Source: an uncultured Planctomycetota bacterium (lineage in GTDB: Bacteria; Planctomycetota; Planctomycetia; Isosphaerales; Isosphaeraceae). From it: a DNA stretch of 64,000 bases. The DNA lies in assembly GCA_963823665.1 (NCBI GenBank), contig CAWGMQ010000005.1, positions 768,001-832,000 of the forward strand. The letters are read 5' to 3'. A program made the position numbers and the translations under genes. Below the pieces are notes generated by a model, which was not told the origin of the DNA, made no database searches, and worked only from the letters and a program-made list of their open reading frames with translations. Of this stretch, positions 60,326 through 64,000 are shown one piece after another; the stretch's first letter is position 1, and each line of letters starts with the position of its first letter.

Positions 60326-61006
60326 TTACTCGGCCGGGCGCTGGCTGGTCGTAGCGACGAGCACCTTACCGGCCGCGGCCACGCCGAGGGCAACGTTGCG
60401 GCGACCGATCCGGCACACGATCGCGCCGGCCTCGGGCCGGTTCTCGAGAATCTCGCCCATCGCGTTCAATTCGAGGCCGCTTTCGCTCAGGTAGCGCAGA
60501 AACGCCGGATCCTGGTCCATGACGCGGACCACCCGAAAATGCTGGCCTGGCCCGCAGCGAGCCAGCGCGATTCCCGCGATCTCCTCGAATGAGCCATCCG
60601 CGCGGGGGATCGGGTCGCCGTGAGGGTCGACCGCGGGGTAGCCGAGGTAGGCGTCGATCCGGTCGATCAGCCGCTCGGAGGCGGCGTGCTCCATGTGCTC
60701 GGCCTCCTCGTGCACCTCATCCCAGGTCATGGTTAGCGTTTCGGCGAGGAACCGTTCGAGCAGGCGATGGCGGCGAATCACTTTCATCGCCAGCCGCTGC
60801 CCCGAGTCGGTGAGCCGTGCGCCCTCGTACGGAGTGTAGGTGGCGAGGTTTGCTTCAGACAGCGTCTTGAGCATGCCCGTGACGGTGCCGGGCGAGACGT
60901 TCAGCGCCTGCGCCAGTTCACCGGTCGCAACAGCATTGCCGGAAGGATCGCGGGCGGCAATGAGCGCGATCGTTTTGACGTAGTTTTCGACGGTCAGGCT
61001 GGGCAC
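60326..61006 (-). CDS. mntR: DtxR/MntR family metal-dependent repressor with FeoA-like domain
   Basis: ENYVK, RRHRLLE, HEEAEHMEH and DPHGDPIP motifs. Confidence 0.9.
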   Translation of the reverse strand: MPSLTVENYVKTIALIAARDPSGNAVATGELAQALNVSPGTVTGMLKTLSEANLATYTPYEGARLTDSGQRLAMKVIRRHRLLERFLAETLTMTWDEVHEEAEHMEHAASERLIDRIDAYLGYPAVDPHGDPIPRADGSFEEIAGIALARCGPGQHFRVVRVMDQDPAFLRYLSESGLELNAMGEILENRPEAGAIVCRIGRRNVALGVAAAGKVLVATTSQRPAE

Positions 61007-61163: not shown

Positions 61164-61234
61164 AGACGCCGGTGGGAGTCGAACCCACTTGAACCGGGTT
61201 GCAGCCGGTCGCCTGGCCGTCTGGCTCCAGCGTC
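61164..61234 (-). tRNA. tRNA-Cys(GCA), non-canonical core
   Basis: GACGCTG-GA-GCCAGACGGCCAGGC-G-ACCGG-CTGCAAC-CCGGT-TCAA-GTGGG-TTCGACT-CCCAC-CGGCGTC-T. Confidence 0.85.
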
Positions 61235-61254
61235 AAGCGAGCGATCAATCATGA

Positions 61255-61327
61255 TGTCCCCGCCAGGAATCGAACCTGGTCCTCGACCTTCGCAAAGTCG
61301 TGTGCTGGTCCGGCACACCCCGAGGAC
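61255..61327 (-). tRNA. tRNA-Arg(GCG), non-canonical core
   Basis: GTCCTCG-GG-GTGT-GCCGGACCA-GCAC-A-CGACT-TTGCGAA-GGTCG-AGGA-CCAGG-TTCGATT-CCTGG-CGGGGAC-A. Confidence 0.82.
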
Positions 61328-61340
61328 GATTGTTTCCGTA

Positions 61341-61411
61341 TCCCCCGCCCGGGAATCGAACCCGGCCCTGCGGCTTCGAAGACCGCCGTGCGCCCGACAC
61401 ACTCGCGAGAA
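61341..61411 (-). tRNA. tRNA-Arg(TCG), non-canonical core, weak acceptor stem
   Basis: TTCTCGC-GA-GTGT-GTCGGGC-GCAC-G-GCGGT-CTTCGAA-GCCGC-AGGG-CCGGG-TTCGATT-CCCGG-GCGGGGG-A. Confidence 0.72.
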
Positions 61412-61428
61412 TCGATCCTCCCTCCACA

Positions 61429-61501
61429 TGCCCTCGCCAGGAATCGAACCTGGTCTTCAACCTTCGGAAAGTTGCGTGCTCATCCGGCACACCCCAAGGG
61501 C
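61429..61501 (-). tRNA. tRNA-Arg(CCG), non-canonical core
   Basis: GCCCTTG-GG-GTGT-GCCGGATGA-GCAC-G-CAACT-TTCCGAA-GGTTG-AAGA-CCAGG-TTCGATT-CCTGG-CGAGGGC-A. Confidence 0.82.
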
Positions 61502-61953
61502 TTTCCAAGCAGTGCACCCAGAGCGCGCTGAGTTTGAACTGCGAAGATCAGACGCTCGTCGGGTCCAGAATGTTCGCGCGAATCGCGCACGAACCTCCGG
61601 CCGGCGATCATCCTGCCACCAGGCCGAAGCTTGGCTGGCTCAGTTGATGGCCTCCGAGCGCCCGACGCACCCGCAAGGACCACAATGAGATGGCCCGGCG
61701 GCACCCACGCGTCATTTAATCATCTTTTTTCTGGAGAGCTGCCAAAAGATCGTACATAATCGAGGGTCGAGTATCTGTCGGGCTATGTGGCTGTCAGAGG
61801 GGCGGCTCGGACTGGGAAACGCTCGAGCTTCGCGAGCTTTGGCACGCTGCGCCGGGAATCCTGGCGAAGCTGTGCGGCGAAAGCGGGGGCTCCATCCTCT
61901 CCGGCCGGCGAAGCGGATAGACACGACGCGAAAGCACGCGGGGCCTGCGCACC

Positions 61954-64000
61954 ATGAAACGCGATCGAATCGAGAAGCTGATCTATAGCGGCCGTAGCGC
62001 TCAGCGCTTCACCCAGGACACGCCGATCCTACCCGATGTCTGGATCGAATATGCTGTCCACCCCGGCGCCGCCAAGCGCTTGCTGCTGACTCCGTGGCAG
62101 GGGCCCGGGCTCTTCCATACCACACCTGGGCTGCTCAGCGTCGTGGTGCGGCAGCGACTGGAGGCCGAGCGCTGCCCAGCGGCGGTCCGGCCAAACGAAA
62201 ACGATCGAAGTCAGCCTCCGAGCCGATTTCTGGCCCTCCCCCCGTGCAAGTCGCCTACAATAATTCGACCGTTCTCGTCGAAATGAGCTTTACCGAGCTC
62301 ATCCGTGTGGTGCTGCCGCTCTCCGATTGGTGGCGCGTGCGGATCGCCGAACCGGGCTACGACCGCCTCTTGAAGAAGCTTCGCCTGGCGCAAGACGATG
62401 AGAAGTTCCTCGCCAGCCTGGACGAACCCGGCGTCTTGGGATCACGGCCCAAGAGTTCACAGCATGCGCCGAAGAAGTCCGGCGAAACCACGAGCGACCC
62501 GGATCAGATCGACATCTATCAACTCCCCCCCGCCTTGCTCTGGATGATCCGAATCATCGGCTCGATCGCTCTGGCTGACCGTGCCGCGAGGAGCAACAAA
62601 ACGCTGCCGGAGGACTGGCCGCCGCAGCGCGAGAATGGCACCGAGCCGACGGAGCCGTTGCGAAAACAGATTCGCAATCACCTTCGCAAAGTGATCGGCG
62701 CCGTCGCCGACCTCCTCGAGAATATCGATACTCAGCCAGCAAGCGTCCCCGCCGACAAGGACGACCCGACCGAATCACCGCCGGTCGTTCGAGTCTATTC
62801 GGTGAGCCTCAACCGGAAGGCTGCGACAACGTTGCACGATTCGCGAATGGCGGTCAAGGCCGATGCCGCTGTTCAGTTATTCAGCATCTCATGTAAGGAG
62901 CTCTCCTGGGCCGTCGTCGACAGCGGCATCGACGCCCGTCACCCCGCGTTCCGCATTCGCGCAAACGATAAGCCCGCGCCCGCACCGTTCGCCGGGGGAA
63001 AGAACTGGACTCGCATCACCGCGACCTACGATTTCACTGTGATTCAGTACCTCTTGAGCGCCGACGCGGCGGCCGATGAGACTCTCAGCAAGGACCTCCG
63101 CAGCCGCCTCGACCTGATTCAGCGGCGAGTCGCTGCGGGCCGGGGTCCGAAGAAAAGCAAGGCTGATGAAATCTTCGTCGAGCAGTACGACAGGCTGCAA
63201 CGGAGCTTGCTCAAGGGACGGGCAATCGACTGGGCACTGCTGCTGCCATTCATCACCGTCCCGCAAGTCGATATCGACACCTATCGACCACCTACGAACG
63301 AACACGGGACGCACGTTGCGGGAATCATCGGGGCCGACTGGCGGGCTGACGACCCTGAGGCGCCACCGGATGGCGACGTGGTTGGTATCGCGCGCGATAT
63401 CAATCTTTACGACATCCGCGTGCTGGACGACCAAGGCCATGGCGATGAGTTCAATGTGATCGCCGCGCTTCAGTTTCTTCGCTATCTGAAGTCACAGAAG
63501 GACTTCATGGCCTTCCACGGCGTGAATATCAGCCTCTCGATCCGCCACGATGTCGCCAACTACGCCTGCGGCTGCACGCCGGTGTGTGACGAGTGTGGGC
63601 GGCTGGTCGGCAACGGCATCGTGGTGGTCGCGGCCGCCGGCAACGACGGCTACAAACAAATCCTTCTCGCCAAGGGAGGCACCCTCGATAGTTTCCACAG
63701 CATCAGCATCACCGATCCGGGCAATGCCGAAAGCGTGATCACCGTCGGGTCGACTCACAGGCAAATGCCGCACACCTATGGCGTGAGCTATTTCTCCAGC
63801 AGGGGGCCCACCGGCGACGGGCGCGCAAAACCCGACCTCGTCGCTCCTGGCGAAAAGATCACGGCCACGGCGCCCGACGGCGCCGTTCTGACCTTGGACG
63901 GCACGAGCATGGCAGCCCCTCACGTCAGCGGCGCAGCGGCGCTTTTGATCGCCCGCCACCGTGAGCTGTCCGGGCAGCCGGCCCGGATCAAGAGTGTGCT
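61954..64000 (+). CDS. S8 subtilisin-like peptidase with long N-terminal region (frameshift near 62200-62240; runs off the window)
   Basis: Read directly from the sequence: VVDSGID (~62913), HGTHVAGII (~63303), AAGN and GTSMAAPHVSG (~63900). N-terminus RFTQDTPILPDVW. Confidence 0.88.

Follow-up and report, generated by a model that had tools for sequence, protein, structure and literature searches.

The window analysed here, a stretch of 64,000 nucleotides from an uncultured planctomycete of the family Isosphaeraceae, carries near its 3' end a block of four tRNA genes, preceded by a short leader, a promoter-like motif and, farther upstream on the other strand, a subtilase gene (Table 1). All four tRNA genes fold into the canonical cloverleaf, with stems of 7, 4, 5 and 5 pairs, a 7-nt anticodon loop, the T-loop UUCRA and GG in the D-loop, in agreement with the intact stems and T-loops described in the initial annotation. 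Scored against Rfam RF00005 they reach 44.7 (Arg-CCG), 26.5 (Arg-UCG), 25.2 (Arg-GCG) and 45.6 bits (Cys-GCA), such that two of the four, Arg-UCG and Arg-GCG, lie under the gathering score of 29.

Table 1. Features of the tRNA block and its surroundings, given as positions within the window.
Feature	Position	Strand	Evidence and remarks
tRNA-Cys(GCA)	61164..61234	-	ARAGORN and RF00005; G8 (61227), G14 (61221), A15/A48, U73
tRNA-Arg(GCG)	61255..61327	-	ARAGORN and RF00005; G8 (61320), G14 (61314), A20, C15/A48
tRNA-Arg(UCG)	61341..61411	-	ARAGORN and RF00005; G8 (61404), G14 (61398), U15/G48
tRNA-Arg(CCG)	61429..61501	-	ARAGORN and RF00005; G8 (61494), G14 (61488), A20, C15/A48, A73
48-nt leader, weak hairpin (z -1.18)	61502..61549	-	Between motif and Arg-CCG
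ECF-sigma-like promoter motif GCGAAC-N16-GCGTCT	61550..61577	-	48 nt upstream of Arg-CCG; function putative
Subtilase gene	62094..64000 (61954-64000 including apparent frameshift near start)	+	Pfam Peptidase_S8, PADLOC subtilase

The special feature of these genes is their core. The pair U8-A14 is a nearly universal structural element of tRNA; when the anticodon, the T-loop and the acceptor stem are used to fix the numbering, all four genes have G at both positions, as had been claimed from the sequence, and the four atypical 15/48 combinations reported at the same time were reproduced exactly, without a single Levitt pair. Position 21 is A in Arg-CCG and Arg-GCG (two of four) and C in Arg-UCG and Cys-GCA. 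None of the four genes has the U8-A14-A21 triple or the R15-Y48 Levitt pair of canonical tRNA. The tRNA-Pro and tRNA-Gly of the window both have the normal U8/A14, as stated earlier, and so do 43 of 44 numbered tRNAs outside the array in this genome, the exception being a degraded Leu copy; this sample comes from 40 genome stretches that hold most, not all, of the 96 RF00005 matches, and its U8/A14 set includes housekeeping Arg-ACG, -UCG, -CCG, -UCU and -CCU as well as Cys-GCA. Several decayed tRNA-Leu duplicates occur in the genome stretches L041 and L064, and a tadA-like deaminase gene adjoins tRNA-Ser(CGA). The anticodons of the array genes are redundant with those of housekeeping genes except for Arg-GCG, the sole gene with a GCG anticodon among the tRNAs of the genome examined. 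Arginine identity is set by A20, C35, G36 and A/G73, cysteine identity by the GCA anticodon and U73. These synthetase identity elements are present in three of the four genes; the window copy of Arg-UCG has G20 in place of A20 and, in addition, three G-U acceptor pairs, and is therefore the weakest of the four.

A register error had been named early on as the finding that would undo the G8/G14 assignment. ARAGORN places the D-stems of the three Arg genes slipped by two (U11-G26 ... G14-C23), and it is conceivable that these genes adopt this different cloverleaf, in which G14 pairs with C23 and G8 is carried along as a passenger. The slip retains G at position 8 and puts C, U and C at position '14' of the three Arg genes, so that U8/A14 is not restored; indeed no register gives it back. 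Besides being the one that ARAGORN draws, the slipped register pairs throughout in 207 of 248 related Arg/Thr genes without U8, whereas the standard register does so in all 248, among them A8/A14, A8/U14 and C13-G22 variants, which are incompatible with the slip. The D-stem of the Cys gene is unable to slip, the stems of G8/G14 genes for Cys, Asn and His in general cannot do so either, and a slipped D-stem leaves the coupling of G8 to G14 unexplained. The alternative cloverleaf is very improbable.

The double substitution is conserved, being held in 69 of 76 orthologues at loci chosen by similarity (Arg-CCG 13/14, Arg-UCG 17/19, Arg-GCG 22/23, Cys 17/20), and the second potential objection, that homologues might fail to keep G8/G14, was answered by the same count. 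Furthermore, the two positions change together. In tRNA-Arg genes of viral contigs, with both sites left free, 85 distinct genes comprise 67 U/A, 16 G/G and 2 A/A, with no mixed combination (the pattern gave 110 matches, of which 5 with fewer than 6 acceptor pairs were dropped, leaving 86 U/A, 17 G/G and 2 A/A before deduplication). With G14 fixed in a GTDB scan, G8 accompanied it in 153 of 155 genes among the matches listed (5 of 160 dropped, again for fewer than 6 acceptor pairs). When all tRNAs in the viral loci are considered, G/G is the second commonest combination, with 29 genes of several isotypes against 533 U/A, 15 of the 29 being the Arg genes that were the target of the search. The acceptor, anticodon and T stems of 248 distinct G8/G14 Arg and Cys genes are 98.5-100% paired, by several pair types; these figures apply to genes that ARAGORN detects and depend, in the case of Arg, to some extent on the search pattern, and related genes are not independent. 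A20 is found in 170 of 200 Arg orthologues (24/29, 58/69 and 88/102 by gene) and U73 in 48 of 48 Cys orthologues; A/G73 and purine 37 are retained in the array tRNAs, too. The remaining core follows, as seen from 1000 register-clean genes out of 1464: A21 occurs in 62 of 273 genes of the G/G class vs 414 of 576 of the U/A class, the Levitt pair in 3 of 273 vs 432 of 576, and a purine at position 48 in 255 of 273 vs 87 of 576. In a tree computed from the stems alone (140 sampled rows of 55 columns, rooted at the midpoint, no clade test), G8/G14 genes fall into separate groups for Arg/Thr, Cys, Asn and His, which is suggestive only. An obligatory fifth D-stem pair G14-C21 was considered and rejected: C21 is enriched (149/275), yet A14 variants also carry C21, so there is no covariation between 14 and 21. 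With positions 8 and 14 changing together, stems covarying and identity elements kept, the view that the core is a coordinated alternative and no product of random decay has held up, and, judged by their conservation, the four genes are genuine and maintained by selection.

The block is not free-standing. In intact relatives it closes a syntenic array of 22-37 genes that begins with Phe-GAA and Glu-UUC and ends with His, Trp, Arg-CCG, Arg-UCG, Arg-GCG and Cys, with Trp adjoining Arg-CCG. In this genome 33 array genes follow the same order in five collinear pieces on one contig, the inserts between them measuring ~4-74 kb, and Cys-GCA is the final gene. The genes of the four-gene array in the initial annotation are thus genuine, as the tail of something larger, and the suspected membership in an accessory array is supported by their position at the 3' end of the long syntenic one. 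The array shares the hallmarks of the known L-arrays in being long, same-strand, non-periodic and composed of mostly redundant tRNAs, and its isoacceptor set is near-complete and conserved in order. Within it, 19 of 33 genes have U8/A14 and 14 depart, the departures beside G8/G14 being A8/A14, A8/U14, C8/A14 and C8/C14; several are fixed by isotype across genomes (Ser-GCU A/A 39/39, Thr-GGU A/U 14/14, Tyr C/A 15/18), and the calls for the array Trp, Met and three Ser genes have imperfect D-stem registers. The idea of a distinct G8/G14 class accordingly survives in part: G8/G14 is isotype-fixed, but the array as a whole mixes U8/A14 genes with alternatives other than G/G. The three array tRNA-Ser genes (L026 8208-8292; L027 8342-8426; L028 9116-9200) have an unusual body common to all three and a long variable region that is unstructured; the array tRNA-Leu genes have short variable loops, and the array Trp and Met tRNAs short D-arms.

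Matches to the block were obtained by DNA search in 37 of 61 genomes, and in a sample of the phylum the Arg pattern occurred in 16 of 28 genomes of the same class and in none of 272 from other classes. Named records with this pattern are almost all Planctomycetota among the 80 titles listed of at least 117 stretches, and cultured carriers include Blastopirellula marina DSM 3645 and Stieleria magnilauensis TBK1r; similar blocks lie on one viral contig and in one record titled Gammaproteobacteria. A plasmid collection gave no match, and a phage collection a single match of 51 nt only.

The subtilase gene and the next gene, of the MBL fold (Avs1a/LmuA-like; L026 6150-7307), form a defence-like insert that parts the block from tRNA-Trp and the remaining array beyond the window. 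At the corresponding Trp/Arg-CCG junction of a sister genome two SIR2-like genes are located, which suggests a hotspot for defence genes. Just past the window, an HNH endonuclease gene of 200 amino acids lies between tRNA-His and tRNA-Trp (contig ~833.5-834.1 kb; L026 7474-8076); HNH was found in five of six His-Trp ORFs scanned, including that of this genome, in keeping with L-arrays. Integrase, RepA-like and PIN-domain genes flank array fragments (L027, L028; contig 866-886 kb and 941-961 kb), as could arise from the insertion of mobile elements at tRNA genes of the array. A gene for a DtxR/MntR-family regulator follows the block (60326-61006, reverse strand), and a similar gene stands there in at least one other relative. 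An association with RtcB or TROVE genes, which the initial annotation had put forward, did not materialize: both gene types reside on other contigs, at loci devoid of tRNA, with no site of the promoter motif at rtcB and only one with two mismatches near TROVE. Both rtcB and cysS are split into two frames each (contig C4, ~1.598 Mb and 3.011 Mb), probably by assembly indels.

The promoter motif was found by comparing 19 upstream regions. Its two elements, GAAC and CGTCT, are spaced by 16-17 nt, and this bipartite AAC/CGT-type shape fits the consensus of ECF promoters. The site upstream of Arg-CCG is the sole match within the window at up to one mismatch. Exact matches number six in the 16.5-Mb genome (one for the reversed control), three of which directly precede array fragments; the remaining two fragments have copies with one and two mismatches, such that all five pieces are covered. 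In a scan with a matrix built from 32 sites, all in other genomes, the window site ranks first of 127,906 positions with 33.7 bits vs 8.3 for the next, while the score is below zero at 42 of 44 upstream regions of non-array tRNAs. A further 20 sites elsewhere were chosen by eye, from the matches listed, for having GAAC followed by an A; at 12 of them a tRNA on the same strand is no more than 500 nt away, and of these 12 sites two lie on contigs already known to carry the block. A sigma factor gene was absent from 14 ORFs scanned near motif sites, and scanning for sigma-70 promoters turned up two weak sites (9/12), with no terminator. In one relative (L396, G034:C597) an exact motif precedes cysS, which is present there as a single gene, by 59 nt, and a lone imperfect tRNA-Ile(GAU) has a one-mismatch motif 96 nt upstream (L060, G000:C8:1564702).

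These findings bear on the proposal of Kim et al. 2016, derived from low Cove scores and laid out in S2 Text of PMC4807772, that planctomycete clusters of this kind are degenerate. Applied here, the genes would be dispensable relics of a horizontally acquired cluster, and G8/G14 an inherited accident. The low covariance-model scores, the patchy presence within the class and the fragmentation of the array by insertions can all be accommodated by such a history. The G8/G14 genes are, however, conserved at least as well as the U8/A14 genes of the array (identity to relatives' copies 0.86-0.92 for the four genes vs a mean of 0.84), amid spacers that vary freely and are unalignable; Cys-GCA, with a mean identity of 0.92, is the most conserved of 32 array genes compared, and identical Cys genes are found amid unlike flanks. 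Compensatory stem changes and the promoter-like motif kept at every fragment also run counter to decay. As far as conservation can tell, the relic reading is largely refuted, and we regard it as extremely improbable.

Downstream of the motif, intact arrays have a longer leader than the window block, with an ORF of ~33 codons; the leader of the window block contains no leader ORF, no terminator and no match to the attenuator model. In this genome two strong matches to that model precede Asp and Lys-CUU. The first tRNA is 150 nt or more away at 36 motif sites; a terminator-like hairpin is present at 33 of these, and 29 leaders were left once 4 off-family hairpins had been dropped. All 29 contain a stop codon (27 TGA, 2 TAA) 27-39 nt before the hairpin, and in 26 an in-frame ATG lies 22-41 codons before the stop, compared with 3 and 1 for the other frames; leaders found later have the ATG at 33 codons in seven of seven. 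An ORF before a terminator is thus present in relatives and in two other fragments of this genome, and absent at the window block. In nascent folds of 28 of the 29 leaders, the segment that starts at the stop codon pairs with the 5' arm of the terminator (antiterminator of at least 5 bp), and in the folds the terminator forms when this segment is masked. At full length, 17 of the 29 leaders adopt the terminator fold, so that antitermination would need kinetic trapping there. The antiterminator is 86.4% paired, with a covariation score reached by 2 of 500 shuffles, the terminator 92.4% paired, with a score reached by none of 500; these fractions are not probabilities, because the structure was derived from the same sequences and the kin are related. 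A mutually exclusive antiterminator inside the footprint of a terminating ribosome is what prediction and covariation point to. The strict leader pattern was found in 2 of 201 genomes only, and a covariance model, used instead, matched in 36 of 61. Its best match was fetched for 30 genomes. In 27 of them the match has E < 1e-6 and lies no more than 150 nt upstream of a tRNA on the same strand, and 12 of these 27 have handles absent from the training alignment; the three weakest matches are not so placed. No Rfam family matches the leader.

With functional tRNAs, the leader could still be an ordinary small-protein gene followed by a leaky terminator instead of a regulated attenuator. The C-terminus of the peptide is conserved at the protein level (Arg at -2 in 25 of 36, via five synonymous codons), and the segment that begins at the stop codon looks like a copy of the 3' arm of the terminator and shows weaker covariation than the latter, all of which is compatible with this view. 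Yet that segment begins exactly on the stop codon and follows changes in the 5' arm of the terminator, and the peptide is mostly unconserved in sequence while conserved in length; we deem the small-protein reading unlikely. The peptides end loosely on Y/H/F-P-x-R-x-stop (e.g. L027 9774-9869), an ending that may slow the ribosome at the stop.

With regard to modification, ThiI scored over the cut-off neither in this genome nor in 36 genomes of the same family, and in 4 of 61 overall; the one weak match of this genome is MnmA. With no ThiI detected in the family, thiolation of U8 is improbable in this genome, and escape from 4-thiouridine, the motive behind the earlier suggestion of modification-independence, is an unlikely one and finds no support. 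It may instead be that the absence of ThiI relaxed U8, family and ThiI status being confounded. ArgRS and CysRS are each encoded at one locus per genome in five of five genomes, which speaks against a dedicated synthetase for the array tRNAs in these five. An argument from sole decoding was tried and fails, as a canonical Arg-ACG gene exists in five of five genomes checked; no genome dependent on a G8/G14 tRNA was therefore found. Contigs with the Cys gene were seen in four metatranscriptome runs from four studies, with full-length identity in three; these contigs extend past the gene at either end and could stem from DNA or from a precursor, and no CCA end was seen. In all, 24 metatranscriptome runs hold small shares of matches, and the contigs of four were examined.

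An induced but mainly non-decoding function has to be weighed at this point: the RNAs may bind tRNA-cleaving toxins and phage-defence nucleases in the manner of decoys or sponges, or may donate amino acids, with the altered core changing recognition by nucleases, EF-Tu or the ribosome. The redundancy of every anticodon but that of Arg-GCG and the defence-like genes inserted within the array are in line with this, and a sponge has been discussed for the Anabaena array (PMC8421152). A near-complete isoacceptor set in conserved order and the retention of A20, A/G73, U73 and purine 37 are, on the other hand, more readily expected of decoding tRNAs, and the same source describes the Anabaena array tRNAs as charged and present on polysomes. 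Overall such a role appears improbable, and the retained identity elements favour charged tRNAs.

The four genes are probably real accessory tRNAs at the 3' end of a Planctomycetia array that is inducible and built on an alternative G·G core; the geometry of this core, charging, promoter activity and attenuation are what we infer from the comparisons. A G·G pair is able to take the tWH geometry. In these tRNAs G8 and G14 would substitute such a pair (trans Watson-Crick/Hoogsteen) for U8-A14, and the wider purine-purine pair would find room through loss of the A21 triple and of R15-Y48, position 48 being a purine. The canonical U8-A14-A21 interaction is described as a tWH/cWS triple (PMC3287178). 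Against this scheme, among nine 8-14 substitutions scored in yeast SUP4oc, a set that may not have included G8-G14, A8-G14 alone worked (PMC4117946). The rebuilt core may set the stability of the tRNA or evade enzymes that act on housekeeping tRNAs, and the single housekeeping ArgRS and CysRS would charge it. Transcription of the array would be started by an alternative sigma factor. A ribosome at the leader stop would mask the segment at the stop codon, such that the terminator forms; with lagging translation the antiterminator would form first, the tRNAs would be made and the pool refilled under translational stress. The window block, having the motif without an attenuator, would respond to the sigma factor alone. 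Whether the array as a whole is an emergency kit of about 35 tRNA genes, with an alternative-sigma promoter, a leader-peptide attenuator that senses translation failure and several tRNAs whose core is rebuilt on G8·G14 with purine 48 and lacks both the A21 triple and the Levitt pair, is in our judgement evenly balanced. If true, loci dismissed as degraded would become a conserved stress system, the leader would provide direct feedback from ribosome performance to tRNA supply, as a second solution beside the Anabaena repressor, and the function of long tRNA arrays would become testable in cultured planctomycetes. The hundreds of natural variants allow one to ask how far a universal-seeming tRNA core can be rebuilt, with a bearing on tRNA engineering and on the annotation of tRNA genes near or under cut-offs.

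Comparison with known systems starts with the 'degenerate tRNA gene clusters' of Planctomycetes (PMC4807772, S2 Text), which are very probably these loci: large, of low covariance scores and, in some cases, with Ile-UAU. In its accessible text they are called partly degraded and possibly dispensable, whereas the departures reported here are isotype-fixed and compensated, and the 8/14 positions, promoter and leader go unmentioned there. A further close counterpart is the trn operon of Anabaena PCC 7120, likewise a long, non-periodic, same-strand set of mostly redundant tRNAs with an HNH gene and a dedicated upstream control region; it is induced by translational stress, and 23 of its 26 tRNAs are charged (PMC8421152). 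Unlike the planctomycete array it has no G8/G14 among the genes called, and its charging data therefore do not transfer directly. In that array (Nostoc PCC 7120 plasmid delta, L290 15000-16900), His-GUG and Glu-UUC apparently have A8/A14, the register of Glu being uncertain. Control differs as well, with direct repeats at a sigma-70-type promoter in Anabaena as opposed to the GAAC/CGTCT motif and leader-ORF attenuator in planctomycetes, and L-arrays are otherwise sporadic, while the planctomycete one is syntenic across families of one class (PMC8421152 for Anabaena). In predicted architecture the leader resembles the whiB7/wblC attenuator of Actinomycetota, with a variable uORF whose efficient translation leads to a terminator and whose impaired translation leads to an antiterminator; that attenuator (PMC10274678) controls a transcription factor, whereas the planctomycete leader precedes tRNA genes. 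A literature search, with most subscription journals lying outside and part of the texts accessible, returned nothing on G8/G14 in planctomycete arrays, no leader-ORF attenuator before a tRNA array or operon and no natural family with a G8/G14 core. The base pair as such has precedent, while the tRNA family and its control region are apparently without one. Sterner, Jansen and Hou reportedly engineered a G8:G14 E. coli tRNA-Ala suppressor in 1995, which is said to be the best-tolerated replacement of U8:A14. For the tRNA-Thr(UGU) of Haloferax volcanii a Hoogsteen G8-G14 pair was proposed (PMC2584109). Both cases represent the same double substitution in single genes, whereas the planctomycete set comprises hundreds of natural genes of several isotypes, in which A21 and the Levitt pair are lost jointly.
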